A stretch of 64,000 nt of DNA, from the NCBI GenBank assembly GCA_036172245.1, contig JAYWIR010000108.1, positions 62,001 through 126,000 on the forward strand, read 5' to 3'. The DNA comes from Raillietiella orientalis. Lineage: Eukaryota. Below the pieces are notes generated by a model that did no database searches, was not told the origin of the DNA, and saw only the letters and a program-made list of their open reading frames with translations. Within the stretch, counting starts at the first letter, position 1. Each line of letters opens with the position of its first letter. A program made the translations under genes and the position numbers. Below are positions 996 to 36,051 of the stretch, piece after piece.

Positions 996-1014
996 TCTCA
1001 GGCAGCGGGTTGTT

Positions 1015-1352: not shown

Positions 1353-1363
1353 GCGACCGCCGT

Positions 1364-3036
1364 TTGCCACCCGGATATGCCGGGGCATTTATTATTCTAA
1401 TTTTCTACAAAAATTAGATAATAAAGTCTTTCAAAAGTTAATTGTGGGAAACACTTGGTTTTCCCACCTTGGTTGACGTGTCTGTTGCCGGTGCATAGAC
1501 CGGTTAGGTCCATTCCCGAGACGCATGGAAAGGAAAAACTAGAACAAAAACAAACAAAAAGAGAGATAACGGGGGAGGGAAACAGATGTATGGGAGAGGG
1601 GGGGGAGCAGGGAAGGGATCACTGGGCGCCTGGGTCGGTCCTCCGCATCCTGTTCAGGATGCAGTCAAGTTCACTTTTTATCGTGAAAGATAGACGTCAC
1701 CTTGTCGCCGTCTCTAAAGAGATCGTTGTCCAGTGGATGGCGACCATGCATCTTGAGCCTCTTCATCTGGCGCGCCACCTTTGCACAATGCCGCGCACGC
1801 AGCAGAGGACTGCTAGAGACGCAGCGGGGCGCAGGCCGTCACGAAGAAAGAGGCGACGGTAAATTTCCTGAGGGTCGCCTACTGGAAGATGAAGGATTGG
1901 GGCGATTCGACTCCAGAGTCCATCCAGGGCGACACACTCGAGGGTGAGATGCGGGAAGGTTTCTCTTTCTCCGCACTCGACACAGCGGGCATCCACATTC
2001 CCCAGTGTCCAGTGAGACAGGCGTGCTCTGCTTAACAGTCCCCAGTGCAGAAATTGCAACGCCGTCTCCTGCCACTTCAACGGAAGTGTGCCGTAATCCC
2101 AACACGCTGGGGGCGACTTCACCTCCTCCGGAGGTATTGCGAGCAGCTCTCCCCAGCGCGCAAGTCCGTGAGGCGGGACGCTCGGGGTGGCAGCGTTTGT
2201 GAGCTCCCGAGTCGTCCACGCCTTTAAAGGTTTTTCCTGCCTCGGATGAGGCAGGACACTTCCCACGATGCTTCCTCGTTACTGCTCCTACTGTTTTTCA
2301 GGGAGGACAGAACGGGGGCAAAAAGGCTCAAAGAAGCCCACAGAAACTTCCGGGGCGTGTCGATAATATCCTGCAGCGGCTGTCGAACGTACGGTCCTCG
2401 TCGTAGGCAGTTGTATTCCGCCTCGCTCGTACCGGTGATCTTAGCCCACGCGGAAGCTGACTCCTGAAGCCAGGCAGTGCAGTTCGCTGGGATGCAGGAG
2501 ATCCAGGTATTCTCCCTCATCAGGGCGACCATCTGGCGCAAATCGGGACCACAGTTGGAGAGGCTGCGCTGGCAGCCCACGAGGATCGAGGACAATCCTT
2601 CGCAGCCGGTCGCTCTTCTGGCGAGGAGCCGTGCCGGATCGCACAATGGCGTCATCCATAAGCTAGCCGCAAGGGCTAACTTTGGAATTCTTGTTTGAAG
2701 TTGGATGCGCTCCAACGTAAGGAGGCCTAAGCCACCATCCCTGCGTGGAGCGCACAAGTCTTTCAATCGGACTCGCGACCTCGCTGTGCCCCAAAGGGCA
2801 GTCCTCAAGAGGGCTTTGGTCCGTCTCTGTATGATGGGAGGGGCGGGGCAAACAAAAAGTAAGGGGCGAAGGAGAAGGGGCCGCGAACGCGTTATACACC
2901 GCGGCCCGCTCCTGCAAGTAAAACTTGCTGTTCCGGAACGGGCCGATCGCCAACTCCACCTTTTGGAGACGGTCGGACCAGGCTTCTGCAACGCAGAAGT
3001 CCCCCAACGGAACGCCAAGGTACTTGAAGCACCTGC
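1364..3036 (-). mobile_element. Subfamily A, 3' part of ORF2 (end of RT, C-terminal Zn finger) and 3' UTR
   Basis: FKYLGVPLG; RRDGGLGLLTL; CVECGERETFPHLTLEC; near-identical inverted copy at 61.64-63.31 kb; frameshifted. Confidence 0.9.
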
Positions 3037-3240
3037 CGATCCAACGATGTCGACCCAACTTGAAGCTAGTGAAGTTTGGGGAACAGCATCCGGATCTGCA
3101 ATCGCGGAACCGACGGCCGCCTCCACTTCGTCTTTCTCCCCAATGGAGAGGAGTTTTGCTGACGTTGGTGCCACAGCAGCCGTCAAAGGGAAACCACTCG
3201 ACGAGTCGGAGAAGGCTATAGACCTGCTCTCCGATATAAG

Positions 3241-7234: not shown

Positions 7235-8180
7235 CTCCGCGTCGGGATGCTGGTTTGGGTATGTTGACAATGGAGCGAATCGGACTGCAGGTGCAGTTCC
7301 TACTGTTAGCACTGTGTGCCCAGCTATGGACATCCCCCCTGTGTGTGTCAGCCCGCATTCTCCTACGGAGATGCACCGGCAGCGGAGGATTTCTCTCGCT
7401 TTTGCCGGGCACTCATTACAGGAAGCGGGGTTTCGGGTTTCCATTGCGGCAGTTGACCGCACTTCTGGAAGCACACTCGTGGATCTCCTGCCGCCCAATA
7501 AACTTTGAAGCTGGGCGGCAGGAGTCTGTTGAATCCTGAACGGCGTTCCAATAAAGGCGCCCTGAAGATCTTCGCCCCCTGCGCCAATTTTTTCCACGAT
7601 CCTTGGAAGAAGTACTGCAGGACGAGGTGAAGTTTTCTATCCTGGCTGCCGCGCCTCTTGCCGCAGCGCTGTCTGCCCTGAGGGCAAGAAACGACAGTTA
7701 CCAATTGGCGAGGTGGGAGATTTTCGGCACGATAGCGGGAAAAACCAAACTTCTTGACGCCTGGAAGACGAGTGAGTTGACGGACGCCTCCACTCCTCGT
7801 TTAAACTGCAAAGGAACTCCTCCGGTGGGCAGAAGAACTTGCTGTCACCCCCGAAGAACTTGTAGTCCCTCCACAGTGTATTGAAGGTTCGCTGCTCCCC
7901 CTTGCTTGGAAACAAGCCATGGTGCTTTTCGTTCACTGGTGTTTTCATTGGCATCGTGACTCCTTGGGACTTGCGTCTGCGAACTGATTTCGTAGCGGAT
8001 CGACGGAGTCGATTCCGCACCTACTTCTGAACTTCGGTGTCCTACAAGGACTGCGGCGTAGGCTGGCAACAGCACTAATGCACCCCGTGGACACCGCAAG
8101 AGACTTGCTGCGACGATTCTTCACGCCGAGCGGGCTGTTCCTAAGCGCAAGGATTGCAACCATCGGTTGCATACGCGCGA

Positions 8181-10216
8181 TACGGCCAAAGGCCACAATC
8201 TTCGATGGCTACGATAGCCTTTTCGGAGGGCAGGCCGCCGCGCGCGTGACGGTGAAAGAGAGTGGGCTTCCCCACAAACTAGAGGTCAATGGCGAAGTCG
8301 TAGACCTCTGGTACGTGGGGAAACCCCGCTTTTGTGGCTACTGCAATGCAGTAGGACACTTGCGCAAGCGGTGCCCGAACATTGTGTGCCACTTATGAGA
8401 GTAGAAGGGACACGTACGCCGCATATGCCCTAAACGCCCCACTCCGGTGCCGCCTGCTGCAAAGAAAGCACAGGCAAAACGCGGTAAACTGGTCGAAAGA
8501 CCAAAAAGCGATACTGGCCGGCAGCAGCCGCTAGCCCCTGTTCCTCCCACACAGGCGTCGGAAGAAAAACCCTCCGAAGACGCGGGAGTCCAAGACGGCT
8601 GGCAGCTGGTCAAGGCCAGGAAGGAGACAAAGGTGCCCCCCGCGGAACCCGCGAAAGCGGTAAAAAAGACAGCCGGCAAGGCGAAGAAACCTGGGCCGCG
8701 CTCTAAGACCATGCGGGAGTGTACGGTAGCACTGGAGCGCATAGCCGTTCCCGAGATTGCCACCCGGGGCGACGAGCCTTCCCTCGCCGTTTCCGCCGCG
8801 CCCGAGGTTCGCGACGGCGAACCCTCTGTTTACACAGAGGGTGAGCCGCGCGACGCGCCGGTCGACACCGAGGACGCCGCGTTCGCAAAGGCGGCGGAGG
8901 AGCTCGCGGCCACGCTGGCGGAGCGTGAGAACCCCTCAGGCAAGGCCGTGCGAAGGCCGGCTCCCGCGAAAAAGGCCCCCACAGGTGAGTCGGACCTGGG
9001 GGCCGGAAGTGCATCCTCCTCCTCGGAGGCACCCCCCAGGAAGTCGGGACGCAAGTCCCAGAAACCCAGGAGGCGCCTCCCCTCCACCAGCGAGGGGGAG
9101 AAGCAGGAAGGTAGCGCTAGCGTGGGAATCCCGGAGGGGGAACTCCCACGCTCGGAAGCCGTCGAGCCGGCCACCCCCATGGAGGAGGGTGAGCAGGGGG
9201 GCGAAGTCCTCCCTGCAGTCGCCGAGCCTGAACAGCCCGCCCCCATGGAGGAGGGCCAACAGGTAGGCGCGACCCCACTTAAGGGTGACCCCTCGACGCG
9301 CCGTTACCCATGGAGGAGGGGGACCAGGTGCACGCAGCGCCTGACCCTCCTCCTCCACCTAGCGTCCCGCCCCAACAGGTGGCGGACGCCGCATCGCCAT
9401 CTTCCCAGGAATAACACCTGGGCTCGCCAGTCGCCGTCGGATTCGCGCCGTCTGTTGGAACGTCAACGGGCTGCGCGACGACGGTAACAGGCGAGATACG
9501 GCCGACACCCTGCGTGAGCTCGACCTGGCCCTGCTGCAGGAGATCCACGTGATCACCGCGGCAGACGCCCAGGAGATCGAGACGATCGCGGGGGGTCGGC
9601 TGTATTGGCGGTGCGGCCTCCGCAACACCTGAGGGGTCGCGTTCTTCGTGAAGCCGGCCATCGACGCGGCCGTGAAGGGCGTGCGCTTCGATGACGACGG
9701 TCGGGTCGTTCAGCTGATTCTCAGCTGGTCCGACTCGATCGAATTGATCTTCACGAATGTGTACGCCCCCAGCGGTAAACAGGGATACAGCGACCGTACC
9801 AGGCTGCTGGATTCCCTGAAGCGCGACTGGCTGGCGGACACGAACGTGCGTAAGGCTCACCTGATAGCGGGAGATTTCAATCTCCGTCTGCTAACAGGTG
9901 AGCCAGAAACACAAGAGAACGCGATGAACGAGTTGTGCGCCGCCATGCGTGCGCGCAACTTGTTCGCGGGTGAGAGGGGAATGGTCCGCAGCATCGAACA
10001 CGTCTTCCTCGACGCTGACCTGTGTTCACGGGTCGGCAAACGGGGGAGGGTTGCGTCGACGTTGTCGGACCATTCCCGGTTAATTTTCGAGATGCGGCCT
10101 CGTGACAAGAGACCGCCATCCAGGGATTGGCGTCTGCCGGGGGACTGGACGCGACTCTTAGGTGCGAAGGAGTACCTTCGCGAACACCTGAGAGGTGTCC
10201 CGCTCCGGAATCTCCA
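8181..10216 (+). mobile_element. Subfamily B1, 3' part of ORF1 and APE; continues at 15748
   Basis: CGYCNAVGHLRKRC knuckle; PMEEG repeats; APE motifs; sequence resumes after the TSD at 15748. Confidence 0.9.
10201..10216 (+). repeat. Target-site duplication, left copy (right copy 15748-15763)
   Basis: Exact CGCTCCGGAATCTCCA on both sides; host frame LRNL|QDWD rejoins. Confidence 0.95.
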
Positions 10217-10429
10217 TTGAAACCCGGGTGCGCCGGGAGGTTTATTTTAAAGAATAAACTTATACAATCTGTGACTGGACCAGTAGTCCAGCCACGCCCT
10301 GGAAAGATATAGCCTGCCGGGCTACCGGTGCGCAGACCGGCGCGGTCGACCTCGGCAGCAGAGGGGAGGGGGAACGAAACAAAAAGAAAACAAAAAATAA
10401 ACAAAAATCAGGGAGGGAGCGGGAAGGAA

Positions 10430-13400
10430 TCACAGTCTGCTGGGAGGGTCCGTCATCCTCTGGAGGATGCCGGCAAGCTGTTTCTGCTTGTGTGGTTCCA
10501 GATGGGGCCAACGCGTCGCCATCCTGAGGAAACGGGCAGCATACACGTTGGCATCCGTGTCGCTGGATCCTCCCGACGCTTTGGTCCATGCCACGACGAT
10601 CCCGCGTAGGCAGCACAGGGCTGCAAGCGAGGCCGCTGGAGGCAGGGCGTCACGGACGAAGAGGAAGCGCAAAGCGTCTCTGGAATTGCCTTCGGGGATC
10701 CCCAGGGCTGCGGCAAAGCGTTCCCACAAGGGACGGAGGGCAACACAATCCACTAACAGGTGGGGTAGGTATTCCCTCTCCCCGCACCTGACACAATTAG
10801 GGTTGACACCCCCCCGCGTCCAGTGGTGTCGGCGGGCTTTGCAAGGAAGCCCCCAATGCAACACCATCAGTGCCGACTGTTGCCACTTCATGGGGAGGGT
10901 GCGCGATTCCATGAGCACCGGAGGCCACTCGAGATGTTCCTCTGGAACATCCAGTAGCTCTCCCCAGCGCAAAAGTCCATTTGGGTTGGTCCTCGGGGTC
11001 GCAGCGTAGGTGAGCTGACCCGTTCTCCAATCCCCGATCTTCTTTGCCCTGCTGGCGATCTTCAGAGTTACCTCCCATTGTGCCGCGACGTCGCTGCCCA
11101 GATGTTCCCGTAGGTTAGGCAGTACCGCAGCAAGGAAGGTTCTTTGTGCCCACACTCTCCTTCGGGGATTCTCGATGATTTCTCGGAGCGTGCGGCGGGC
11201 ATGCGGCCCGAACAGAGCTATTCCCTCGTGTTGCGGGCTCTGCTCCTGAATCATCGCCCACGTGCGGACGGTTTCCTGCAACCAGCCAGGACCGTTCGCG
11301 GGGCGTACGCGGATCCGCGCCGAGTTGTTCTTCACGAGCTTGGCCGCCCTCCGAAGTTGAAGTCCGCAGTGGCAGATGGGGCTTCGGAGTGCAAAGTAGG
11401 ACGAGAGTCCCGCATTGCCGGTGGCCCGCTCGACGAGGAGACGTGCAGGGAGGCACCAAGGGGTGCACCAATTTCCTGCCATAAAGTCAACAACTCGAAA
11501 CTGGAGCTGTAGCTCCAGCCGCTCCAACGTCAGGAGGCCCAGACCACCATTCCGACGAGGAGCGCACAAGTCCGAAAGACAAACTCGGGGCCTCCCTCTG
11601 CCCCAAAGGGCGATCCTCAGGAGGTCCTTCGTCCTCTTCTTTGACTCCGCTGAGGGGGGGCAAACAAAAAGCAAGGGGCGAAGGAGGGGGGCCGCAAACG
11701 CGTTCCAGGCCGCGGCCCGTTCCTGCAGGTAGAACCTGCCATCCTGGAACAGGCCGATCGCCGCCTGAGCCTTCTGAAGGCAGCCAGACCACGCTTCCGC
11801 AGGGGAGTAATCCCCCAACGGCACACCAAGGTACTTTAAGTACCTCACCGTGGGGATCCTCAAACGGACCCAGTCCTGCTGCCCTGCCCACGCCGCTCCG
11901 ACTGGCATTACGGACGACTTCGCCCTGTTCACCGTCAGTCCTGTTCCACGACTCAGCAGGTCGAAGAAGTCCTCGACCGCCCAGGCCGGGGTGGACATAG
12001 GCAGCAGCAGCAGAAGATCGCCGCGTACGCCGAAGCCGCAGGCGTACCGGGGCAATCGCACGGCAGGTGCGCAAGAGACTCCCTGTACGCTCTCAGCACC
12101 AATTCGAAAAAGGCGCTAAAGAGCAGGGGGCTCAGGCTGTCTCCCTGCCGTATGCCGCGTCGCACCGGTACTCCGCGCACGGTTTGCCCGCTGAAAAGAA
12201 CATTAGTGAGCGCGTCGCGCCAGCTGGAGCGCAGGTAGGCCAACAAAGAGGCCGGGAAGCCCAAGCGTTCCGGGAGCTCCAGCAGGAGATTCTGGTCGAC
12301 GCTGTCGAATGCTTTACGCAAGTCGACAGCGACCGCAAGGGCTCCCTTCCCCACCCAACCGTTCCGTCTCCCGCCAACGGACGCACCGGAATTCCGGCTG
12401 CTCAATAAGCCCCTTCCTTGTTGGAGCTCTAACCATGTGGAAGCGTGGAACAGGGTCGCCTCCATGCTCCGCCCGGGAACAGCATAAGTCTGTTCCGGGC
12501 TGATGAAGATGTTGGCGACCCGTCCCAGGCGCTCTGCCCACATCTTGGCTATCAACTTGGCGTCCGCATTCACTATTGTGATGGGACGCCAGTTGTTCAT
12601 GCTCCTTAGGTCTCCTCCGTTCGGGAGGAGCCGCACCTTTGCTGAACGAAACGAGGTGGGAACGTCACCTGTTTCACGGATCAGCAAGGTGAGCTGATGT
12701 ACCAGGGGAGTAAGCTCAGCCGCGAAAGTTTGGTAATACTCCGCGGGCAGGCCGTCCTCCCCTGGAGCCTTCCGCCTCTTGAGCTTTCCGATGGCCGAGA
12801 GGATCTCGTCCATCGTGAAAGGCTCGTCGAGGCTTCTTTTCTCCTCCTCCCCGATCGCTGGAGCACCTTCCGGAAGCAGAAGTCGTGAGACGTCTCGCTC
12901 CGAAGGCGCCCTGGCTTACAGGGAGGAGTAAAATTTCCTTACTATCCCGCGTTTCTGAGCGGGAACCGAGTGCTCCCGGCCCTGGTCGTCCAGCAAGGTG
13001 GCCGATCCGGATTGCCAGGCTTGCCTCTCGGCTCACGCTCGGTACCCTGCTAACCTGCCCATGTCGGGGGTTCTCGCGTAACGTCGGGCCTGAAGATAGC
13101 ACCTTTTGTTACGCGGCCCCTCACCAAAACCCGCAGGTAGGCGATGCAGGGGGAACTGATCGCAGAACTCCTGCACGGACCGCTTCAAGCGGTCCCAGTC
13201 CTGAAGTGTCTGCATCCTGAAGCTCCGAATAAACGCGCGGAGGTGCTCCGCCGCGTCGGGAAACTTCAGCCAGTCCCCTGGAAGACACCACGCTGACGAT
13301 GGGGGGCCCTTGTCGCGCGGACGCACTTCGAACATAATCCGACCATGGTCTGACAGCTCGGATGGTTCCTTGCCGCGCCTGCCCACCCGAGAGCATAGTT

Positions 13401-14007
13401 GCTGATCAAGGTACACGTGATCGATGCTTTCCATGGCCGTGTCCCCGGCCAACAAGTTGCGCGTGTTCATTTCTGCGCACAACTCGTTGACGCGGTCGTT
13501 CAGTGTATCCGGCGCACCTGAAAGCAGGCGCAGGTTGAAATCACCTGCGATCAGGTGCGCTTTGCGAACTCCTGCATCGGTCAGCCAATCGCGTCGCAAG
13601 GCAAGGTAGAATTCCCTTCTTGCCTTCGCCTTCAACCCCTTATTTCCGCTAGGAGCGTATAGGTTGGTGACGACCAGGTCGATAGAGTCGGACCAGCTGA
13701 GAGTCAGCTGACCGACGCGACCTGCGTCATCGATCCGAACGTCCTTTATTGCGGCGTCGATGGCTGGCCGAAGCAGGAAGGCGACACCGCTTGATTTCGC
13801 GGTGCCGCAACGCCACAACAGCCGCCCACCCAAGATACGTTCGATCTCCCGGACTTGATCTGCGGAGATCACGTGGATCTCCTGCAGCAGCACCAGGTCG
13901 GAGGATGCCAGGGTGGCGGCCACGTCACGCCTCTTGCCGTCGTCGCTTAGCCCGTTCACGTTCCAACAGGCGATCAGAAGACGACGCCGAGAGGCGATTC
14001 CCGGCAT
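10430..14007 (-). pseudogene. ORF2 APE-RT-Zn finger, disrupted
   Basis: Collinear ORFs 13033-14007, 11953-12813 and 10430-12061; YADD lost by a 1-nt deletion. Confidence 0.92.
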
Positions 14008-15664
14008 TATGGCTGGGAAAGTGGCGTCGCGGCACCTGCCGCGGGGCAGGTGTACGAAAGGTCCATCGGTACGAGGACCATCGGAACGAGGACGGAGGCC
14101 TCTTCAGGCGCCTGGGGTACCTGTTCGGCGTCCATCCTCACCATCCCCTCCGTTTCCGCGCGTGGGAGTCTCTCGGGCGACGGGTCCCGGGAGTTTCCCA
14201 CGCTCATGGCACCCTCGTTACCGGAAGCCATCTCTTCCCCTTCGTCGGGGGAGACGATCTTCCGGGGCATTGTGGACTTTCGTCCTGATTTTTTGCTGGG
14301 TGCCGCGGAGATGGATGCTGTGTTTCCGGCCTTCACCTCGGGGTCGGAAGTGGCCGACTCCTGAGGGGAAGCCTGACGCCTGTCGGCCTTCTTGCCAGCC
14401 TTGGGGCAACCGGCTGCAACGAGGCAGCCAACTCCTCCGCAGCGCGCTCGAAGGCGACGTCATCGAACATGGGCTCGATGACGGACGCCGCCGCCTCGCT
14501 CCCCTCCTTGTTGACTTTGTCAACGGAGGGTTGAGCAGGGGCAGCGGCGAGTTCTTTAGCGCCGCATTCGCCGATGGCGGGAATCCGCTCTACAACGACG
14601 TAGCAGCTTTTAATTTTATCGCGGCGCAGAGCGGTTTCACTACGTTTCGCCACGTTCTTTCCCTTCTTATGGAAGTTTTCCTTGGGGTCGACCTTCTGCC
14701 ACCTTGGCTCTTGACCCTCGCCCTCGACCTTTTCGGCGTTTTTCGCCGAAGTCTCATGGCTAACCTTCGCCTTGGTGGCGGAGGTGACCTCCTTAGCAGC
14801 AGCAGGAGCTGCCAGCTTCTTTCTCTTTTTTGCCGCGCGCTTTCTCGCGTTTTTCGCGGACACGACGCGGACTGTGTTTTGAGGGCACACCAGACGGATG
14901 TGCCCCGCTTGTTCGCATTGCTGGCACTGCACGCTCGGACACCTCATTTTAAAGTGACCAAAGCTGCTGCAGCAGCCGCAAAACTTGGGTTTCCCCACGT
15001 ACCACACGTCAACGGATTCACCGTTGACGGTGAGTTTGTAAGGAATCTCACATCCCAAGCGAACCGTCATTCGCGCTGCACCCAGGCCGCCAAGCAACCC
15101 GTCGTAATCGACAAAAGAAGTTGGCTTGCCCCACAGCGCGTGGACAGTTGCGAATTTTTCCAATTTGTTCCGGACGGCCTCCTTCGTCATCCGGAACGTG
15201 ATACCGGTCAGGTGAATGATCACCGACCGGTCTTCTGTTATTGGGAGAAGCCTCCGGCTGCCCATACTTACGGGGGTTCGCAGAAGTCTCTGCGCAAGAG
15301 TTGCCTCCTTGCAGATAACTTCCACAAATTGACCCCCGCTTCTGACGGACATAGCCAGAAGCTCCTCTTTCTGTACGCCGAGAACGCGCATCGCCTGTGA
15401 GAAGGCGCGCGCGTTCTCGGGAGAATATAGACCGCCTACCTTATATAGAAGGGGTGGGTTATACCCCTCCTCCAGGTAAGCGCTCATTTCCGCCATAGCC
15501 GCTGGCGTAGATGCCGCAGCCACGGCGTTCCAAGCCCTGGGTAGGGCCGGGGGCGCATCCATGCTGGCGGGAGCCTCCACTGATGCGGGAGCTCCCACCT
15601 CCATCTGCTCCGGGGGCAATGAGGTCATCGACCCCGGATCCTCACCGGTGGTGGTATCAGGCAT
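14007..15664 (-). pseudogene. ORF1 gag-like protein (frameshift near 14370)
   Basis: CGCCSSFGHFKMRC, CQQCEQAGHIRLVC; stop overlaps the ORF2 ATG. Confidence 0.85.
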
Positions 15665-15747
15665 TTCTGCCTAATCCTCCACCCACACCACGCAAAAGCA
15701 CCAACGGAAATAAAACTCAGGAGCAACGAAAAGACACGTCCGCTTGA

Positions 15748-18700
15748 CGCTCCGGAATCTCCAGGACTGGGACCTATTTAAGGAATCGGTCCGCGAGTTC
15801 TGTGAGCAGTTCCCCCTGGATCGCCTGCCCCCCGGATTCGGCGAGAATGCTCGCAACCATCGGGCCTATTTACAGGCTCGTAGGTACGAGAGAACCCCTA
15901 ATGTCCGTCGCCTGGCCGAGTACCGCGCCGGGGCCGAACGCCAAGCCTGGCAATCCGGGTCGGCCAGCTTGCTGGATGACCAGGGCCGGGAATGTTCGTC
16001 CCCGGCGTCGGTACGGCAACTCGTGCGGAGTTTCTATTCCTTTCTTTACGCCAGGGAGCCCCCGGATCGAGACGCCTCTCGGCGCTTGTTTCCGGATGGC
16101 GCCCCGGCAATAGGGGAGGAGGAGATGGAAAGCCTCGACGAGCCTTTTACCACCGGCGAAATTCTCGCCGTATCAAAAGGCTCAAGAGGCGGAAAGCTCC
16201 AGGGGAAGACGGCTTACCCGCGGAGTTCTTTCAGAGCTTCGAGGAAGAGCTGGCAGCCCTGCTGCTTAAGTTGATCAAGCTGATCCGAGACGAAGGCGAT
16301 GTTCCCGCCTCGTTTCGGTAAGCCAGAGTGAGGCTCCTGCCGAAAGGGGGAGACCTCAGGGATTTAAAGAACTGGCGTCCGATCACGATCGTGAATACGG
16401 ACGCCAAGTTGATCGCAGGGCTATGGGCTTCGCGTCTGGGGAAGGTGGCAGAATCCGTAATTAGCCCGGAGCAGACTTATGCTGTTCGCGGGCGAAGTAT
16501 GGATGCCAACCTCTTCTTCACAAGCACATGGGTGCATCTGCAGCGAAGAGAGAAGAAAGGGATAGGGAAAGTCGGCAACCCCACATTGGGGCCGCCAGCC
16601 GGGCTGGGAAGGGACCCCCGTGCGGGGAAGGGGGCCCTAGCGCTCGCAGTCGATCTCCACAAGGCGTTCGACTGTGTAGACCAGGAACTTCTCTTGAAGC
16701 TCCTGGGTCGCATGGGTTTTCCACCCTCCCTGATTTCCTACCTGCGCTCTTACTGGCGGAATGCGATAATTACCGTCTCTTTCGGCGGTCAAAAGGTGTA
16801 TGGCGTGCCGGTGCGGCGGGGCATAAGGCAGGGAGATAGCCTCAGCCCCCTGCTCTTCAGCACCTACTTTGAGTTGGTGCTGAGAGCGTACAGGGTGACT
16901 TTGGCCCCATTGCCGAGCTCGTGCCCCGGCACGCCCGCCGTAGTAGCGTACGCCGACGATCTTCTGCTTTTGTTGCTAATGTCCACCCCGGCAAAGGCTG
17001 TCGGAGATTTCTTCGATCTGCTCAGCCGCGGAACCGGACTGCAGGTTAACCGGGCGAAGTCGTCGCTTGTGCCAATAGGCGCGGCGTGGCCAGGGCAGCA
17101 GGACTGGGTCCGTCTGGGGATCCCCACGGCGAGGTGCTTCAAGTACCTTGGTGTGCCGTCGGGGGACTACTCCCCTGCGGAAGCATGGTCCAGCTGCCTC
17201 CAAAAAGTCGAGACGGCGATCGGACCGTTCCTGTAAGGCAAGTTTCACTTGCCGGAACGGGCCGCGGTTTGGAACGCCTTCGCGGCCCCCGTCCTCCGCC
17301 CCTTGCTTTTTGTTTGCCCCCCCACCGTGGAATCTAAGAAGAGGACGAAGGACCTCCTCCGTATCGCACTTTGGGGCAAGGGGAGGCCCCGAGTCCCACT
17401 AAAGGACTTGTGCGCTCGGCGTCGGGACGGCGGTCTTGGCCTCCTGACGCTGGAGCGCGTGGAGAAGCAGCTGCGGTGGCGAACCCTCGCCATCGCAGCG
17501 AAGATGTGGAGCACCCCTTGGTGCACTCCGGCCCGCCTCCTGGCCAGCCGTGTGTCCCGGTGCGATGGACTCGCGTCTTTTCTTCTGAGCCGTGGCCGGA
17601 AGATGCGAAGATGCGGCCTACTCCTCGGGCGCATGGCAACATTGGCCAAGCAGAACAGCTGGATGGTTTGCTGCCCCGCCAACTCCCCCGCCTGGCTGGA
17701 GGAGAATATTGGAACGTGGGCAGTAGTTAACCAGAGAAGCCACGAGACGTGGAATCGTCTCCGATGCAGCCTCTACGCCCGCTGCACGCTGCGGAATCTC
17801 CTGGAGAGTCCAGCAAGATGCACGTGGGCAGAGACGACCTGTCTAGCTACGGCGCTGCCCTTCCTGAAGAGGGCACTTCACAGCAGCCGGACGCCAAGGT
17901 GGCAAGTCTCCTGCTGCTTCGGGGGACGCGAAAAGTTGATCAGCCGCTGGACAACAGGAGAACTGGCTGACGCCACGACCCCGAGCGTCCAGCCGCGAGG
18001 ATTATTAAGATGGGGCGAGCTGCTCGCCATCCCCAGGGATGAGCTGAAGTGGCCCCCGGTGATGAAGGAATCCAGGATCCTGCCCCTCAAGTGGTAAGAT
18101 TCGGCGTTGCTTTTGTTGCATTGGGGTCTACCCTGCAACGCGCGCCGCTTCCACTGGACGAGGGGAGCTGTGGATCCTGCGTGTGCCAGGTGCGGGGAGC
18201 GGGAGTCGCTTCCCCACCTTATTGTGGATTGTGCTGCCCTCCGACCCCTTTGGGGACGGTTCGCGACGACCCTCGGGCTCCCTACTTGCAGCACCCCCAG
18301 AGACGTTCTTCGGCCCCTCTTCGTGAAGGACGCACTGCAGCCAGCCGCTGCCATCGCAGCATTGTGCTGCGTCCGTGGCATCGTGGGGGCATGGAGCGAC
18401 GCCAACAACGAAGGAGTGGGTGCACAGGCGAGGGATGTCATCTTGTATGCCAAACGCTTCTTGCGAAGAGCTGCCGGAAGGGTCCAGCTGGGGAATATGC
18501 AGACTGACCTCGAGGGCTTAGTTCGACGAATGGGGCCTCCCCGAAGCGACCAGTGATCCCTTCCCTGCCCTCCAACTTCTTTTTGTTTGTTTCTTTTTAT
18601 TTTACGTTTTGTCTAATCCCCATTCCCCTTCGCTGTCGGGGAGTGCCACGCCGGGCTGCGTCCCGGTGTCCCGACAGGTCCTGTGTTTACGGCCGTGGTG

Positions 18701-18761
18701 GGGCCTTGTACCACGCATGTGAAGTTTATTAATAAACGTTCCGGGCGTACCCGGGTGATAA
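15748..18761 (+). mobile_element. Subfamily B1, linker-RT-Zn finger-3' UTR
   Basis: ORFs 16328-17236 (YADD), 17249-18097, 18107-18556; 3' end AATAAA..CCGGGCGTACCCGGGTGATAA. Confidence 0.92.
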
Positions 18762-19511
18762 CGCCGAAACCTGGAGGGAGACGGTTCAGGGGAAACTGGT
18801 CGCAGAACTCGCTGACTGAGCTCTTCATGTCGTCCCAGTCCGCGAGCGACTGCAGATGGAAGCCTTGTAGGAACGAGCGAAGATGTTGCGCTGCTCCTGC
18901 GAGGCGCAACCAGTTCCCTGGCAAACGCCACGCTGTGGAGGGTGGACCTCTACCGCGCGGGTGTATTTATAGCGCGAGCCGGGGATGGTCGGAAAGTTCG
19001 GATGGCACTGCCCCTCGATTTTCCACCCGCGAACACAGATGGTTGTCGAGGAACATGTGGTCGATCCTCGTCTCCGTCCCGGCGTCACCAGCCAACAAGT
19101 TGCGCGCGTGCATGGCAGCGCACATATCTTTGGCCAGCTGTGCGCGAATGTCGGGCGCACCTGCCAGCAGGCGGACGTTAAAGTCCCCGGCAATGAGGTG
19201 CGCCTTTCGTATGTCTGCTTCGGCCAGCCAATCTCGCCGCAGGCCTTCGAAGAACGCAGTGCGTTCCCCGCGCCTGTGGCTCCTGCCGGGCGCGTACACG
19301 TTGGTCACGACGAGGTCGATCGCGTCGGACCACTTGGCAACAAGCTGCCCGATTTGACCTTCCCCGTCGAAGTGCACGTCGCGCAGCGCATTAACGACGG
19401 CTGGCTGCAGCATGAAAGCCACACCGCGGGTGCGGTCTCTCCCGTTGTGGTATACGAGCCGCCCGCCTGAGATCCGTTCGATTTCCTGGGCCTCCCCTGC
19501 GTGGAGCACGT
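18762..19511 (-). mobile_element. APE fragment (possibly the 5'-truncated end of the A element at 1364-3036)
   Basis: NVYAP, AGDFN, IDH, SDH; ends at PPGFG. Confidence 0.85.
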
Positions 19512-22075
19512 GCGTCCGCCGTGCACCGCGCAGTCAAGCGCTACTACTCCTCGTTGTACGAGGAGGGGCCTACGAAACGCAGTCTCTCTGAGCTGCTTCT
19601 TCCGACGGGTAACCCTGCTATCGATGAGGAGGAACGTTCTAGTTTGGATTGGTCCTTCACGGCGGAACAAGTATCTTTCGTTTTCGCGGACCTGAAAAGG
19701 CGTAAGGCGCATAGCAAGGATGGCCTGTCCGCGGAGTTTTTTCATTGCTTCGCTGTGGAGCTCGTCCTTCGGGTGCGAAGGCTCTCCTCGCTGAAGAGTA
19801 AGACGGGAGATGTTAACGCTTCTTTCCGCTCAGCAAAGGTGCATGTATTCCTGAAAGGCGAAGATTTGCGCCACCTCAGCAGCTTGAGTCCGATCACCTT
19901 GGGGAATTCGGACTTCAAGTTGTTTTGAAGCTATGGGTCGTGCGCCTGGGAAAAATCGCGGACTGCTGAATAAGTACGGAGCAGATGTATGCTGTTCCGG
20001 GGCGACCCATGGACGCGAATCTCCTCTTCGCGCGAACATGTTTCGAGATGCAGCAGCGCGTGGAGCAGCAGAGCCAGGCAGCCAAAATCGCAGCTGCCAA
20101 AGGTAAGCGGCGGTGTTCAAGGCACGATGGAACGCCGGGAGCCTAAGCGCTCGCCGTCGATCTCTGCAAAGCGTTTGACAGAGAAATCCAGGACCTCCTT
20201 CTAGAGCTTCTGGGACGCCTAGGCTTCCCGACGCACCTCATCGCTTACTTGAGCTTCTGTTGGCACCACGCGTTACTGCTGTATCTCCTTCAGCGGGCAC
20301 CACGTGTACGGCATTCCCATACGGCGGGGTATCGAGCAGGGAGACAGCTTAAGCTGCCTGCTCTTCAGCATCTTCTTTGAGTTGGTGCCGAGGTCGTACA
20401 GGATGACGCCGGCCAGCCTGCCTTGCTCCTGCCGGGGAACAATGGCCGTGGCCGCCTATACTGACGACCTTGTCCTGCTGCTGCCCATGTCCTCCCCGCC
20501 GTCCATGATCGAGGACTTCTTCGAGCTCATTCGTCGTGGAGTTGGCCTGAGCGTCAAGAGGACGAAATCAACCGTTGTACCGATTGGCTCTTCTTGGGAG
20601 GGGCAGTCCGACTGGATCCGCTTGGGGATCCCCACGGGCAGGTGCTTGAAGTACCTCGGCGTTTCCTTGGGCGCCTTCTGTCCAGCAGAAGCGTGGTCCG
20701 ACTGCCTTCACAAAGCCCAGACTGCTCTGGGCCCGTTCTAAGGCGGCAGCTTTCACCTCTCGGAACGGGATTACGTGTGGAACATATTTGTTGCCCCCCT
20801 CCTCCGTCCTTTCTTTTTTGTTTGTCCTCCTTTCTACTCGGCTATGCGTCAAGCGCAACGCCTGTTGCGGAACGCCCTGTGGGGACCGGCGAGGTCCAGT
20901 ATCCGCCTTCAAGACTTGGCGCCTCCGCGTTGGGATGCTGGCATGGGCATACTGACGCTGGAGAGAATCGAGCTGCAGGTGCACCTTCGCATGTTAGCCC
21001 TGTGCGCCAACGAACTTTCAATCCTGGTGGGAGGAACCTTTGCATGGCTGGGCAAAGCACCAAAGTGCTATCCTCCGGAACTCCGGTGCGCTTACCTCTC
21101 CCCATACTGCACTTGGATGAGGTGTGCATTGCCAGATTCAGTGGACTCGCCTTTGCCGTCACGCCTCTCTTCGATGCGCTGTCAACCCTCAGAGCAAGAG
21201 ATGACAGCTGCGAACAGGCGAGATGGGAGGTCGCATGCACCATTGCAGGAACAACACGAATCATTGGCGGCTGGATGACTTGCGAGCTCTAAGACGTTGT
21301 CACGCCTCGCTACATCTCGAAAAGACTACTTTAATGGAGTGAACGCTTTAGTGTGCCCTCCAAAGAACTTGTTGTCCCTTCCTCCTGTTTGAACACTTCC
21401 GTGTTCCCCCTTTTGTGGAAGCAGGACGTCATCATGCTGATGCATTGGGGTTTTCTTTCCAACCAGCGGACGACAGCGTTTTCGGGGGAGTTGTCTTCTC
21501 AAACTGTAAACGGTGCGGGTAATTGGAGACGCTGGAGCACCTGCTCCTGGACTGCGGTGTTCTCCTAGTACTGTGTTGGCGGCTGGCCTTAGCTCTCCTG
21601 CACCAGAAGGACACCGCCAGATACTTGAAGCGCCGCTTCTTCACATCAGGCTCCCTGTCTTTAGGTGCTGTCGTTGCAACCTTGTTTTGCACCCGCACCA
21701 TCGACAAGGCCCACCGAGAAGTGGAGAAGCTGGCCGTCCTTCGTCAGCCCACCGGATTAGCCAGCGCAAGCATGTGGTGGGCTGCCGAGTGAACCCATCT
21801 ACCACAGAGCGAAATGAGAGATATCGCCGGTATCCATCGCCGGTTCTAAAAGGAAAAAACGGCCGAACCAAAGGCCTTTGTCCACTGCCCTCCATATTTT
21901 TATTAATATTTTTTATACTGGTGTACTTGTGGTCCCTGCCTCCCGTTTCGGACTTTTGGTATACCGACCTGCGTGCGGGGGATCCTACCCTATTCGTCTT
22001 CTCTGTGTCCTTTGTCCGGGAACATTGTTCCCGGATAGTTTTACAATAAACGCCCCGGCACATTCGGGTGATACA
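19512..22075 (+). mobile_element. Subfamily D, heavily decayed linker-RT-3' UTR
   Basis: QGDSLS, YTDD, KYLG; 3' UTR homologous to 50174-50400 and 38638-38865. Confidence 0.88.
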
Positions 22076-24068
22076 CAGCCGACCCCTGCGATAGTCTTGA
22101 TCTCCTGGACATCTGCCGCGGTGATCACGTATATCTACTACAGCAGGGCCAGGTCGAAATCACGCAGTGTGTAGGCCGTATCTCGTCTGTTGCCGTCGTC
22201 GCGCAACCCGTCGACGTTCCAGCTGGCCACGCGGATTCGACAAAGACAGGCAAGTCCAGGAGTTATTCCTGGGAAATTGGCTCGTAAGCGTCCGCCAACT
22301 TTGGGGCGGAACTCTAGGTGAAGGGGCTGTGTCACGCAGCGCTTCTCCCTTCCATATGGGAGCCTAATCGTCGTCAGGACCGTGCAAAGGAAGGAGGGGT
22401 TATAGCCACCTGCACTTCTTCCTCTATAAGGGTCGTCAGCTGCACGGTGTCGGGGAATGAGTGATTCCCGCCCTCGCCTCCCACGCTGCCGGCTTCCCTC
22501 TTCGGTTCCGGTTCATTTCCCTACTTCTTTGTTCGGATGCACTTTCTGGGAATCTGAGACTTGCGTCCCGTCTTTTCTGCTAGCGCTTGCGCTTAGGAGG
22601 ACGCACTTCCGCCATCCGGAACGGCATCACTTGCCTCCGGAGCCTTCCTTGCGGCCGGCCTTCGTAAGACATTCCACGAGATTTTCTCCCGGCCTTGCAG
22701 TTCAGCCGCGAGTTTTTGCACCGTTTACTCGAAGGCGTCCTCCTCGATCGCATCGAGCGCAGCACGCGGTTCCCTCTCTCTTCCCTCAGATGTTTCACCA
22801 TCGACCGTCGCTGCTCCGGCAGACGCGAGGGGTAGATTGCTCCCTCGGTGTCGGCATCGAGTGCCTTTACACGCTCTTTTTTCACCGAACATTTGCGTGG
22901 ATTCACGCAAAACAATTTTTTGTGCTGCGATTTTGTTTTCCCTTGGTTTCTTTCGAAAGTCCCGGGCTTTCTTCTTGGCTGCACAGTCTGCCAGCCTCCG
23001 CCGTCGCCAGCATCGTCAGAGTGCTCTCAACCAATGTTTGCTGGAAGGGTTCACGAACTGGAATCTGGCTTTTAACAGCCTGTTCTCTGTTATTCATCTG
23101 TTCTCACCGCTTTCACTTTGCCTTTTTCGCAGGGGGTTGGACCAGGATTTCTCTTGTTGGGCACACCTTTCGAATATGGCCCTTATTTCCACATAAGTGG
23201 CATTGGATGTTAGGGCATCGTATTTTTAAGTGTCTTGTGGCATCGCAATGACCACAATAGTTGATTTTTCCAACGTACCAAACATCGACTTTCTCTTCGC
23301 CGAGGTTTAGCTTGTGGGTAAGCCCACCATTCTATCGTAATGTGACGCGGGCGGCGTCCATGCCACTGAATAGTCTTCCGTACGTTCGGAAGGCATTGGG
23401 TTTGGCCCAATACGCGTGCACTCTACCATGTTTTGACAACTCCTTATGGACGCTGGTTTTGTCTATTCGGAGTGATACGCCCGTGAGGTGGACCACTACG
23501 GAGCGGTCCTCCTTCACAGGGAAGATCCTGCGGCCGTCAATCGTAATTGGGGTGTCGAGTAGGCGCTGCGACAGACTTTCCTCTCTGCAAGTCAGCTCAA
23601 CTCGCTGCCCCCCACTAAGGAGGAAGAGGCCCGCAATGTCTTTCTCCCTTACATTCATTCTTTGCAGCTCCATCTCAAAGGAACGTGCAATTTTCTCTTC
23701 AAATACATTGCCCACCTTATTGATTAGCGAAGGTTTGTAGCCGCTGTCCTTGTAGGCAGTCTGTCCTGCAGCTGCAGCCCGGATGTTCTAGCAACGACGG
23801 CACTCCAACACCTCGCCGCTGGCAAAGAGGGTCGCGAAGAAGCGGTTGTCCCCGTTTCCGACGGAACAAGTGCTCCGTATTCCGTATGGGCGGATGCTCT
23901 TACTTTCATGGCTGGAAGAGCGCAAGCTGCCTTTCCTTTCTCAGTTTCCATCGCAATGTCCTTAGGCGTTTCTGCCATGGGACACCAGCGCTCTCACACG
24001 CCATACAAACTTCCCAAACCCTAAGCACTATATAGACCGTTGAGCGATGCCAAACCACTTCCACTCCC
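22076..24068 (-). mobile_element. Subfamily B3, decayed 5' UTR-ORF1-start of APE
   Basis: MAETPKD start 23978; VHLTGVSLR, CGHCDATRHLKIRC; ASWNVDG. Confidence 0.85.
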
Positions 24069-24200
24069 TTAGAGGACACGAGGAAATGTGAATCCTAAGT
24101 GTACTGAATGTGATGATCGAGAATCCCTCCCGCACATTTTAGTTACTGTGTTGCCCTCCGGTTCCTGTGGGAACGTTTCGGTACCACCATAGGGTTCTTG
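24069..24200 (+). mobile_element. Remnant of ORF2 C-terminal Zn-finger region
   Basis: TRGNVNPKCTECDDRESLPHIL...CVALRFLWERFG. Confidence 0.7.
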
Positions 24201-24840
24201 GAAGGTAGCCATTCCGGAAGAGAAACGCGACTCCGCACGTGTGCGCGGAGCCTTGCCGCCAGTGTAGCGTCACGCCCACGCGCTTTTCCTCATCCGATGC
24301 CTGCCGTTCGGAGATGGTATGTATCTCTTGGAGCAGCACCAGATCAAAAGCGCGCAAGGCGTTGGCTACCGTCCGCTTTTTGTCAGCGTTGCGCAGACCC
24401 TTGACGTTCCAACAGGTCACACTGACACGACGAGGTGACTCGAGTTCACGCATTACTGCTGCGGACATGACAGCGTACTATTTGCCCCGTCCGGCGAGAA
24501 GTCAGCAGGAGCACAGAGGATTGGGAAACGGAATCGCTTGCGTTCAAAGCCACATCGCACCCAGCTGAGTCCTGGGAGCCGTGAATCATCATCTCGGGCT
24601 CCAAGCATGGGCCGGAAGCGTCTCTGGCAACAGGCTCGTGCTTGCGCATTTTAGACCGGCGCACTTCCGCGTTACTCAGGAATGCACGCTCTGTTTCTTT
24701 GCAATCGGACCCCACTCGGACTCCGAATGCCTAACACGAGACTGGCGTTTCGCTTGTCTCTTTTTGTTTTGGCCGGTGGAAGCTTGCCCTGCACGCGCGC
24801 CAATCGCCGAAGATCATCTTGGAGTAGCAGAGTGTAGCAA
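24201..24840 (-). mobile_element. D/F-group fragment, ORF1 end and APE start
   Basis: TAATG overlap; TCWNVKG..LQEIH; distal boundary uncertain. Confidence 0.75.
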
Positions 24841-27800
24841 TGTACCTATTGCTGACCAAGTACACTGCTTTGTTTTAACAATATGTCTGCACATGAAGGA
24901 GGACGTATGATTTCCATGCGGGACATTTTACACGTAGCCAACGTGACGATATTGTCATTATCTATCGTGGGAAATCGGGAAAAGCAATTACAAAGCCCTA
25001 GAAATAACACTGATTTTTCTTTGAAAACTCTGGATATTGTGATAATGGCAAGCGACAGGGTTTGCAGAAAGGTCAACGGTAAACTGCAGCATAGTGAGTA
25101 GACGAGACTCGTTGCTTGGAGAAATAAATGATTGCCGGATCCAGCTGCTATTTTATGTGTTTCGAACGAAGTTCTGTTACGCAAGATAGGGCTCAGGAGA
25201 TTCTTTCTGCAACATGTGTTTTCAAGAAGAAAATTTCAAGATGCGTAGAAAGAATAATGCGAGCATTTCATCCTTATATTCGACCTCGTCTCTTAATGAT
25301 CGAGTCACGAAGTGAGAATTCCTATTGTATCTTTTTCCAGCTGTAAATAACTACCATTCAAAAACATTCAAAGTAATGGTCAGAACGTTTTTATTCTTAA
25401 AAGCTCATTCTACAGAAGAATCTTCAGAGGTAGCGTTGAAGACCTTCCGAGCAATTATAGGTGGAGATCTGATTGTAACTGTGAAACGGCTTCCTCTAAG
25501 AGTGGACCAACTACACCTCAACTTGCTAGGAGCAACTCCATAATGGAATCCAGGCTCTAACCTTCAGTATATTCAAGGATAAACACGAAATTAGAGCATA
25601 CATTAAAACCAATAGACAAATCAATCAATAGTTCATAAGCACGTTCATTCAAAAGTGCGCGTTTTCGATATCAAGAACAACTGAAAATCCGGAAATCCGC
25701 AAACAGATTACAAAAATACCGAAAACTTTAAAAACACACATTATAAGGTGTACAAACGTTAACAAATTAGGTCAAAGTGAGGTTATACTATAATGTACTA
25801 AGTTACACTAATATTACGCTAAGTTATACTACGATTATAGAAAGATACGAAAAAAAGAGTACGTCCACGAATACCAAAGGACACAGAAACTTGCTTGGAA
25901 TATACAGACACTCGAAAATCTTTTTGAGGAGAGCTAAAAACTACAGAAAAACAAACGGAAATCAGCACTCAAACTTTCTCAACTAGTGCCAATATACAAA
26001 CATGGAGTCAGCACAAGTAACACATACCTCCAAGTTAAACCTCCTACCGTCAGATAACAGCTTCCACTGAATTCCGTTAAAAAGAAACTAAATTCCACAC
26101 TAGTTAGGGGATTCAATGACTGAAATGCTAATAAGATCAGTGCGTATGAGAAATCAGCTTACAAATAAAGACACAGAGCAAACACCACGACCCAACGTGG
26201 AACGTGAATTAGTCAGAGCTATCTCGCATGCTCCTGCACGGTTGGTAAAAAAAGAAACACAAGGTCCGCGTTCATCTTCGAAGCCCACTACTCCTGAGAG
26301 AGCCCTATCCTGAGCAGCAGTAAACTTTCCTATGTCAGAAGAATCGGAAGCACTTTCCTTGAAGCATAAAAATCCAGGAATCACCTACGAAAAACAAACA
26401 GTGAGTGATTTTGGTAAAGTATGCGAAACGTCAAATGCGGAGGAAAAAATTTAGCAGCAATAAGCAAGCAGTTTGAGAAACGTGAAACGAGGGCATTCTA
26501 GATGATCGCAATGCTTGATATCACGGCGAGTAGTGGACGCAACTTGGTGAAGAGCACTTCCACAAGCCACACGACTCCACAAAGAAATACGTGACTTTTC
26601 CGTTGAGCGTCCTCCATACAAGTGGTAACATCCAATGGGCATTACGTTGAAAATCACATCTGACATGAGAAAGCCAAAAACATTGCGGGGATGACGACGG
26701 AATTAGAAAGCAACCACGAAGAAAAAATACACGGAAGCCTGCATTTGAAAACGAAACAACAGACAAAAGCAATGTGACAAAGAATGCGCGAAAACTTGGA
26801 AAGGGAGGACAAAACTTTTACTTTACAAGTAGGCAGACTCAGCATCCGCACGCAAGTGCTCTTCGATGGATGGACGCATGCCAAGCGCGCACGTGACTCT
26901 CTGAAGGTCGCAGCAAACGTTCTCCGGATCCGCGACTCCGCATCCAAATTTATTCCGGTCATCTCCAGAACCCATCGGTAACCAGCAGGGTTGGCTGCCG
27001 TAGAAGCGCACATGGTTAGAAAAGAAACACTGCACACCAAGGAAGATTCCCGAAAGAGTAATTCGACCATGTCTGAACTTCGCAGAAGACGTAATAGCAG
27101 CGCATACGCCATGTGAAGTTCCAAAGCAGCAATCACTTCTTCAGAGGGTACCACGGAGCCCATGTCTATCGAGAAACTCGGCACAAATTGAAAAAATTCT
27201 GTTCTGCGGCGCGATGAACGGAAGTGGAGACGAAGTTTCGTTTCGACGGTAGCAACGCGCAAGCCCCAGGAGAAAACAGACCACATTCTTCCGCAGTCGG
27301 CATGCGAACTAACGGAGGGCCAAAGAAGCGTAGCGCTTCTCTTAGTTGCGCGATGAAAGTAGACTGCGCGACGCCGGATAAAAGAAGTTGCACGCAAGAA
27401 GAGGAAAAGCGGTCCGACTAGAGATGCAATAGCTCTTTCTACTAATGCTGCTTACGATGGTTAACAAGACGCGCCACAGCATGCTGCTGCCTTCCATAAC
27501 TTCACACAGGACGAGTAATTTCTTGAGCGCTGCATTCAGCAGAGGCGCGGATTTTCTGCAGCATTTATACCGAATTACGCACATTTCCAACCAATAGCAG
27601 CCATGGTCAACACTTGGAACGACAGGAGTCAAATGTGTCGAAGACACATGGTTCTGGATTGCCTCGCATCGTGGTATCGGTGATGCATTCCTAAAGGATT
27701 GCCAGCTGCAGGAACCTTAGCTGCAAATCAGACGAGCGAAGTCTCCACGAATCTGCGCTACAAAGATTCGTTTACGATTATCGGCAAAACGCCGTGAGAA

Positions 27801-28200
27801 GGCACAGATCACTGCAGCCTCCCGATCCGCCCGGCAAAACGGCAAAGAAACTCATGCAGCCAAGGGAGATTTATTTCAACATATGCTGTTTCCACAGTAG
27901 CTACTAACAAGAAATACCTACATATCAAGTGACGCAAAACGAATGATCTGCGTGTCGTAGAAAAAGGACCTCGCAGCTTGATATCGAAAACTACATGTCC
28001 ACAGGAACAAAGGAAGTTGAAAGGCCACAAAAAGCATTTAGAGGTCGCCGCCGTTTTTTTGATCCTTGGGTCTGCGTTGCTCTAATGTTGCTTGTCAGCT
28101 GAGAGGTGCACGAGTGAGGCATTCCTCGAACAGACACATACTATCAGACTGTCGCAACGCTTCCAAAACCAACCTCCCAAACAAGTCCACTTTGCTATTC
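24841..28200. other. AT-richer non-element island of unknown function
   Basis: No retroelement motifs; very A-rich at 25.55-26.1 kb. Confidence 0.6.
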
Positions 28201-36035: not shown

Positions 36036-36051
36036 CCCCAAATCCATTGGC

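Follow-up and report, generated by a model that had tools for sequence, protein, structure and literature searches.

The 64-kb stretch of DNA analysed here, referred to below as the window, comprises positions 62,001 to 126,000 of contig JAYWIR010000108.1 of Raillietiella orientalis (assembly GCA_036172245.1) and is a dense nest of related non-long-terminal-repeat retrotransposons, or long interspersed nuclear elements (LINEs), lying on both strands. One LINE family of this nest, family C, is present as two copies, C1 and C2, which sit antisense in the APE endonuclease genes of two host LINEs of type B, B1 and B2, with their 3' ends at the homologous base. The two copies are best read as separate insertions into different host elements, made by site-specific integration, a reading to which we give a probability of about 80%. 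An initial annotation of the window had proposed independent site-specific events, and the proposal is supported, for n=2 C copies, by an abrupt step in identity at the junction and by the codon-position patterns of hosts and inserts.

Pfam finds the Exo_endo_phos (APE) and RVT_1 (reverse transcriptase, RT) domains in many long frames of the window, with weaker matches to zf-RVT and zf-CCHC. Approximately 20 element fragments were placed by tblastn with three window-derived proteins, namely open reading frame (ORF) 1 of C1, the E3 APE+RT frame at 30550-33270 and the C-terminal part of C1. Residue numbers follow E3, an intact APE+RT frame of 907 codons on the minus strand. Families were sorted by self-BLAST, the copies being 85-96% alike within families and 65-80% alike between them.

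Two family C insertions at the RNL codons of B-type endonuclease genes

The features that bear on the two insertions are the following; TSD stands for target-site duplication.

10217-15747, minus strand: C1, family C LINE, full length, 5531 bp (Pfam, ORF layout and tblastn map)
14336-15670, minus strand: C1 ORF1, 445 codons open, with CCHC knuckles in the translation
13033-14103, minus strand: C1 APE domain (Pfam Exo_endo_phos, E 5.4e-16)
11953-12915, minus strand: C1 RT domain (Pfam RVT_1, E 5.3e-15)
10433-12115, minus strand: C1 Cys-rich C-terminal part (weak zf-RVT, 10430-12115)
10217-10262, minus strand: C1 3' terminus, with an A/U hairpin around AAUAAA, a G+C hairpin CCCGG-CGCAC-CCGGG and the tail UUUCAA
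10201-10216: left copy of the TSD, B1 sequence, codons ...P L R N L plus CA
15748-15763: right copy of the TSD, identical to 10201-10216
8176-10216, plus strand: left part of host LINE B1, comprising ORF1 (about residue 170 onwards) and APE as far as the RNL site
15764-18762, plus strand: right part of B1, with the remaining APE, RT, C-terminal part and 3' hairpin
54920-57179, plus strand: host LINE B2, comprising ORF1 (about residue 125 onwards) and APE as far as the RNL site
57180 to ~60091, minus strand: C2, the 3' 2.9 kb of a family C LINE, with the tail AUUCAA at its 3' end, 57180

C1 has its 3' end at 10217 and its 5' end at 15747, antisense within the APE-coding region of B1. It is an APE-type LINE, with an endonuclease followed by an RT, no terminal repeats and a TSD. 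Its 5' end starts with TCAAGCGGACGTGTC and carries the conserved motif GGACGTG..., while its 3' end is composed of a hairpin and the 6-nt tail UUUCAA, with no poly(A); the predicted fold of this end is not better in energy than that of shuffled sequences (z -1.2). The CCHC knuckles of ORF1 are accompanied by a weak match to a zinc-knuckle protein. C1 is a dead copy, its ORF2 being interrupted by one frameshift and at least two in-frame stops; in the sister family E, Pfam places APE and RT within a single ORF of 907 codons. C2 ceases to resemble C1 at about 60091, the point at which a B-like LINE begins with its 5' end, and because its 5' side is cut there, C2 has no second junction and no duplication that could be checked. 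The minus-strand coding of family C, the incompleteness of C2 and the dead state of C1 had gone unmentioned in the initial annotation.

That annotation had placed both C inserts at the same 'RNL' site and had ascribed a perfect 16-bp TSD to one of them, and both observations hold. The C1 junction string is GTCCCGCTCCGGAATCTCCA followed by TTGAAACCCGGG, with the break between 10216 and 10217, and the C2 junction string is GTCACCTTCCGGAATCTCGC followed by TTGAATCCCGGG, with the break between 57179 and 57180; the host frames run into these breaks as ...LRGVPLRNL in B1 and ...LRGVTFRNL in B2. The C2 3' junction in B2 is thus the homologous base of the C1 junction in B1, and C is antisense to both hosts. 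The 16-mer cgctccggaatctcca is found at 10201-10216 and again at 15748-15763, and the duplication is exactly 16 bp long because the adjoining bases differ on both sides (10200 c versus 15747 a; 10217 t versus 15764 g). Its 10-nt core, CCGGAATCTC, occurs at three places in the 64 kb when no mismatch is allowed (10205, 15752 and 57168), and a search for the opening 22 nt of the insert gives 10217 and 57180 and no other place, with a chance expectation of 0.

The two pieces of B1 overlap by exactly 16 nt and, in a multiple alignment, are collinear with eight uninterrupted APE genes of other families, the B1 frame continuing as QDWD... past the insert. In the left part, tblastn maps ORF1 to 8150-8881 and APE to 9378-10217. 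B1 is 5'-truncated at about 8176, and its first stretch (8176-9001) is 93.6% identical to 36658-37486; at the other end, its 3' tail UGAUAAC terminates at 18762. B2 has a Pfam Exo_endo_phos match at 56236-56928 (E 1.6e-8) and a zf-CCHC match in its ORF1, and is 93% identical to a second B2 copy at 48531-50173.

Within the window, both C 3' ends (2/2) lie at the RNL site. Both B-type APE genes that reach this site are occupied (2/2), and no interruption is seen at this position in the APE genes of other families, among them C's own (8/8). A GGACTGGGAC-like sequence directly past the nick position is common to all aligned APE genes; CCGGAATCTC ahead of the nick position is found only in B1 and B2 and is missing in the eight other-family genes (8/8). 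Part of the window is also present as short contigs in one public run only, coded X1. Three X1 contigs join 10138-10193 directly to 15764-15789 and represent B-like copies with an empty site; one of them has ...CGAAATCTCGCT between its two sides. Another X1 contig stops exactly at 10216. Two further runs, X2 and X3, match only the low-complexity stretch at about 10363-10401 and are uninformative; stretches that lack contig cover carry no weight either way.

Independence of the two insertions and the proposed mechanism

BLAST across the junction joins host and insert in a single collinear match (9345-13127 versus 56310-60091), so a duplication of the composite had to be excluded. Equal divergence of the host pair and the insert pair, which the initial annotation had named as the outcome that would speak against independence, is rejected by alignment: the inserts (10217-13127 versus 57180-60091) match at 2662 of 2910 aligned bases, or 91.5%, and the hosts (9345-10216 versus 56310-57179) at 680 of 870, or 78.2% (Fisher p 6.7e-24). 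The inserts are therefore more alike than their hosts, as had been claimed, and the lower host identity favours independence. In the 300 bp nearest the junction on each side, identity is 94.0% for the insert and 76.3% for the host. Along the alignment, windows of 100 columns give 71-84% in the host up to the junction and 88-98% in the insert from the junction on, the step being located in the 100-column window that contains the junction, and 5 of the last 20 host bases differ, as against 1 of the first 20 insert bases. Across ORF1, farther upstream, host identity drops to 54-79% per window, and it follows that B1 and B2 belong to different subfamilies, in agreement with the initial annotation.

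The differences are also distributed differently over codon positions. In the hosts they are spread 49/34/88 over the first, second and third positions (chi-square p 1.2e-6), with 52 synonymous and 79 non-synonymous codon changes, and this third-position bias indicates that the hosts diverged under selection, as functional lineages, prior to insertion. In the coding part of C the spread is even (29/33/40, p 0.40), which points to neutral decay after insertion, starting from two copies of nearly one master.

The claim of site specificity gains weight from the like behaviour of other families in the window, E and F/H among them; the pairs of copies of these two families, and of family K, are the following.

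39220-42353 and 45147-47629, plus strand: family E copies, with flanks 42354-42753 and 47630-47925 (minus strand)
19533 to ~22076, plus strand, and ~50174-54011, minus strand: family F/H copies, with flanks 22077-22281 (minus strand) and 49910-50173 (plus strand)
1362-3037, minus strand, and 61642-63317, plus strand: family K copies, inverted, 96% identical, the youngest pair in the window

In family E, both 3' ends (42353 and 47629) come directly after one and the same base of an antisense RT gene, within its K-(A/G)-(F/L)-D codons at about residue 595. The host-sense sequence there is ...TTCGA in one case and ...TTAGA in the other; the inserts are 85.3% identical and the flanks 54.9% (p 2.5e-30). 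Both F/H 3' ends (~22076 and ~50174) lie antisense past the GG(C/T)TG of the GGRL codons, at about residue 90 of APE, with inserts 76.9% and hosts 64.6% identical over their whole lengths (p 4e-18). An F/H-type junction at the same base, 9603, is also found in a B1-like copy in one X1 contig, with 25 nt on its short side.

The junctions, the duplication, the orientation, the coding capacity of C, the identity step and the codon patterns are observed directly, and they are best explained as a whole by site-specific target-primed reverse transcription (TPRT) of C into B-type APE genes, in two separate events. Family C would be an autonomous L1-like LINE with a CCHC-bearing ORF1 and an ORF2 of APE, RT and a Cys-rich C-terminal part, and its integration by TPRT would take place at a single defined site, within the part of B-type LINEs that codes for the endonuclease. 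A nick in the sense strand of the host, between ...CGGAATCTC(CA/GC) and GGACTGGGAC, would free a 3'-OH, and this would prime cDNA synthesis from the 3' tail of the C RNA, which would leave C antisense to its host. A second nick in the other strand, 16 bp away, would then give rise to the 16-bp duplication. C1 and C2 would derive from nearly identical C RNAs that entered B1 and B2 when the host subfamilies had already diverged by about 22%. The nick positions and the priming reaction are modelled here on what is established for APE-type LINEs. The TPRT-type integration put forward by the initial annotation is accordingly upheld in part: the exact 16-bp TSD and the coding of APE and RT fit it, and TPRT itself would be the probable route by analogy.

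The reader of the target could be the endonuclease, or it could be the annealing of the 3' flank of a read-through RNA; such annealing to a homologous target has reportedly been proposed for R1 and R2. In the latter form, which is a sub-mechanism of site-specific TPRT and not exclusive of it, read-through transcripts from copies already in the site would anneal to the homologous nicked or breathing target and prime reverse transcription, so that the RNA would choose the site. We consider this rather unlikely, with evidence on both sides. Head-to-tail pairs of LINEs in the window have a target-like spacer of 13-40 nt between one 3' tail and the next 5' end, for instance cccaaatcc... behind the B tail at 36036; behind the tail at ~38637 stand about 40 nt that look like the F/H target. 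Such spacers speak for read-through RNA, but they fit re-insertion at a retained duplication from an earlier same-site insertion equally well. The nick contexts of five families have nothing in common; RNA choice explains this easily, and the lack of a common context fits either family-specific recognition by the endonuclease or guidance by read-through RNA. Against choice by RNA, the last two host bases differ between the two C sites (CA versus GC), so that end pairing is not needed, and the case for it is drawn from DNA and not from transcripts.

Improbable, by comparison with the above, is a single ancestral C insertion whose composite with its host was copied, by segmental duplication or retrotransposition, and whose host part was then gene-converted from the B2 type up to the junction. 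The collinear BLAST match is what such copying would leave, the window is full of related repeats able to convert one another, and the second B2 copy, 93% identical, lies 6.4 kb away. The step in identity is nevertheless abrupt and located at the junction, with a quarter of the last host bases different (5/20), and conversion would have to cover at least 870 bp of flank and yet spare the insert, the hosts upstream of it being only 54-79% alike. The third-position bias can be accommodated only through the conversion step, and the same coincidence would be required again in families E and F/H.

An assembly artefact, in which one or both junctions are joins of similar repeats made by the assembler, is a very improbable source of the pattern. 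Repeats are very abundant in the region, none of the listed contigs is shown across 10217, and the X1 contig that ends at 10216 could be taken as a sign of such a join; that stop is, however, as expected from a graph branch between filled and empty copies. An erroneous join would produce neither a duplication of exactly 16 bp, with the host frame intact once the insert is taken out, nor a further join at the homologous base in another host. The idea that C lacks sequence specificity, prefers a LINE-rich, perhaps centromere-like, region and shares a site by chance would equally predict that 13 of 13 3' ends lie in or beside other LINEs, but it is the least credible of all, since the same base and orientation in a target of ~5.5 kb would be met about once in 11,000 per pair (our own estimate, from element length), and a shared base is found in all three families with two in-gene junctions (3/3).

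Several points weigh against separate site-specific insertions. The claim of site specificity is based on n=2 C copies in one 64-kb window, C2 is without a 5' junction, and the duplication is visible for one event only. None of the listed X1 contigs is shown bridging 10217, and the junction comes from one assembly. CpG dinucleotides are more frequent per base in the flank (~0.115) than in the insert (~0.079), an excess of ~1.45x that could speed the decay of the flank somewhat, but it cannot explain the 2.6-fold gap in divergence or the codon-position bias. In family F/H, the nearest 205 bp of flank are 76.6% identical as against 81.3% for the insert, a difference that is not significant (p 0.12). 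Finally, the 96%-identical copies of family K differ in their flanks and do not fit a same-site rule in any simple way.

Other LINE families and ends in the window

Further features of the nest are as follows; UTR stands for untranslated region.

60092-60622, plus strand: B-like LINE, 5' UTR and first ~147 ORF1 codons, 74.5% identical to 36036-36567
18763-19512, minus strand: host X, an older LINE APE fragment (about residues 71-329), antisense to B1, whose 3' end adjoins its GFG codons
1012-1361, minus strand: 350-bp element, a LINE 5' UTR and first ORF1 codons joined to a 3' UTR, hairpin and tail
15733-15747 (minus), 36050-36067 (plus), 60104-60121 (plus) and 980-997 (minus): 5'-terminal motif GGACGTG(T/C)(T/C)TTT...GCTCC, at the starts of full-length elements from several families

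The window is nested in itself: all 13 of its LINE 3' ends (13/13) lie in or against other LINEs, nine against antisense LINE coding sequence, four against the 5' end of an element in the same orientation and none elsewhere, and no 3' end lies in sense orientation inside a gene (0/13). The ends share one build, a hairpin followed by a tail of 6-8 nt, with loops and tails specific to the family (13/13). The same two-hairpin layout is predicted for all five 3' ends that were folded, from four families (C1, C2, B1, E1 and K). In four of these five the hairpin energies are not better than those of shuffles (z -0.1 to -1.2), and in one they are (z -2.7); from the folds, only the shared layout is used as evidence. 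Inspection by eye gave no general rule for pairing of the 3' tail with the primer end, such pairing being partly possible in families E and F and not in C, B and K. At the other end of the elements, the motif GGACGTG(T/C)(T/C)TTT is present in 4 of 6 aligned 5' ends and may be an internal promoter or initiator.

Family B itself appears to use one particular coding site. The B1 3' end at 18762 adjoins the antisense GFG codons (about residue 329) of fragment X. After a second 3' end of the family, at 36036, comes cccaaatcc..., the antisense form of GFG, with the 5' end of another B copy 19 nt further on. The B-like LINE at 60092-60622 adjoins C2 at C2's own GFG codons, which would be a targeted insertion and would make the nesting of B and C reciprocal; both the case at 36036 and that at ~60092-60110 are suggestive and not proven. 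As a separate observation, a near copy of the C target, cgctccggaatcgccc, with 14 of 16 bases, lies in the ORF1 of this B-like element (60283-60298, plus strand), and no C is inserted there.

A single shared site for family K was considered and is not supported, the flank at 1362 having no clear match to the flank at 63317. The base 63318 lies in antisense APE at about residue 379, and at 1361 there is a 16-nt spacer that is followed by a 5' end. The 350-bp element looks like an internally deleted, non-autonomous derivative and sits head-to-tail between the elements at 1362-3037 and ~146-1011. Its flanks differ, and tandem re-insertion at a retained duplication was therefore rejected as an account of all head-to-tail pairs.

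The G+C content of the window is 54-63%, apart from one low stretch at about 24-29 kb. This stretch (24000-29000) has 45-47% G+C, and its longer frames are without a Pfam match. An APE gene at its right edge (28985-29791, plus strand) is only 27% identical to the others of the window and adjoins the 3'-truncated end of E3 at ~29750.

Taken together, these sites may tentatively be read, at somewhat less than even odds, as a sample of a closed 'LINE-in-LINE' guild, in which at least five related families have private, base-precise antisense sites in each other's ORF1 or ORF2. The scope of this reading is one 64-kb window and a few short contigs, and the candidate sites by family are the following.

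C: RNL codons of APE
B: GFG codons, ~30 codons further
F/H: GGRL, near the APE start
E: KAFD of RT
K: about residue 379

Reciprocal hits, with C in B1 and B2 and a B-like element in C2, belong to the same reading and are similarly held to be possible, at a little below an even chance.

Relatives, comparable systems and significance

Of the proteins with a solved structure, human L1 ORF2p matches best (E 4.9e-40), with R2 at E 2e-13 or weaker. An HMMER search of 1.84 billion representative proteins with the E3 frame (30550-33270, minus strand) gave P0001 at 72% and P0013 at 68%, all others being at most 36%. These two are thus the only proteins more than 50% identical to the frame; both come from short metagenome contigs, and P0013 is a fragment of 132 residues. 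A word-index protein search likewise gave one close protein, P0001. The nearest named database proteins are the LINE ORF2s of turtle and fish, with ~30% identity, and a protein atlas gave generic LINE clusters only. The C-terminal 261 residues of C1 ORF2 brought up no relative in a metagenome scan, and a further such scan, with an alignment of two sequences, found only one distant locus (L001, 25% identity), which was not used. Because L1 ORF2p is the best match and close proteins are few, the lineage appears, by these matches, to be L1-like and very poorly sampled in databases. The open-access literature that was searched yielded no account of LINE families that target particular coding sites in other LINEs.

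Family C is a variant of site-specific LINE integration that is closest in behaviour to the Zepp nests and to Tx1L. Zepp (of Chlorella and Coccomyxa) and the Zepp-like ZeppL elements of green algae resemble the LINEs of the window in being L1-type elements in nested clusters. Zepp is said to have poly(A) at its 3' end, in contrast to the window, where a poly(A) tail is found at none of the 13 LINE 3' ends. The G+C content of the window outside the low stretch is near that of Zepp elements, which average 61% (PMC3446292). The ORF1 of Coccomyxa Zepp is reported to be without RRM or zf-CCHC domains (PMC5203782), while ORF1 here has CCHC knuckles. The window also differs from Zepp in having several families, each with a base-precise antisense coding site.

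Tx1L of Xenopus is an APE-type, L1-related LINE whose target lies inside a DNA transposon. The Tx1L/Tx1 group thus shares with C the APE-type endonuclease, the relation to L1 and a defined target sequence, and differs in the target, which in C is the coding sequence of a fellow LINE. RIME/ingi elements in the RHS genes of Trypanosoma brucei occupy an equivalent position in numerous genes of one multigene family, as C does in members of a LINE family; there the target is a host gene family and the element belongs to a different LINE clade, whereas the target of C is itself a LINE. R1/R2 and TRAS/SART have in common with the window repeated insertion at one multicopy sequence in fixed orientation, tandem same-site re-insertion and a structured 3' end that replaces poly(A), likenesses that are in part covered by published accounts (PMC4640811, PMC6530143, PMC7265360). 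Their targets are host genes or simple repeats, in contrast to the endonuclease or RT gene of another parasite here, and R2 uses a restriction-like endonuclease where C has an APE.

The known targets of site-specific LINEs are ribosomal genes, telomeric repeats, small RNA genes and one DNA transposon. Here a LINE inserts into the coding sequence of a rival LINE, at a single base and in antisense orientation throughout, and such targeting seems to be mutual among several families. Mutual targeting, if true, would give rise to centromere-like clusters of nested LINEs and leave host genes untouched, and would supply a sequence-level mechanism for nests of the Zepp kind in an almost unsampled eukaryotic lineage. 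Natural APE endonucleases, or RNA-guided priming reactions, with different targets would also be of use for understanding and engineering the target choice of LINEs. Should the pattern not extend genome-wide, the window would still hold a clean case of two independent insertions at one site. Should it do so, it would offer a concrete, testable mechanism for the way in which LINE nests grow, those of Zepp type at algal centromeres being an example, and an instance of transposons that limit the damage to their host by parasitising each other.

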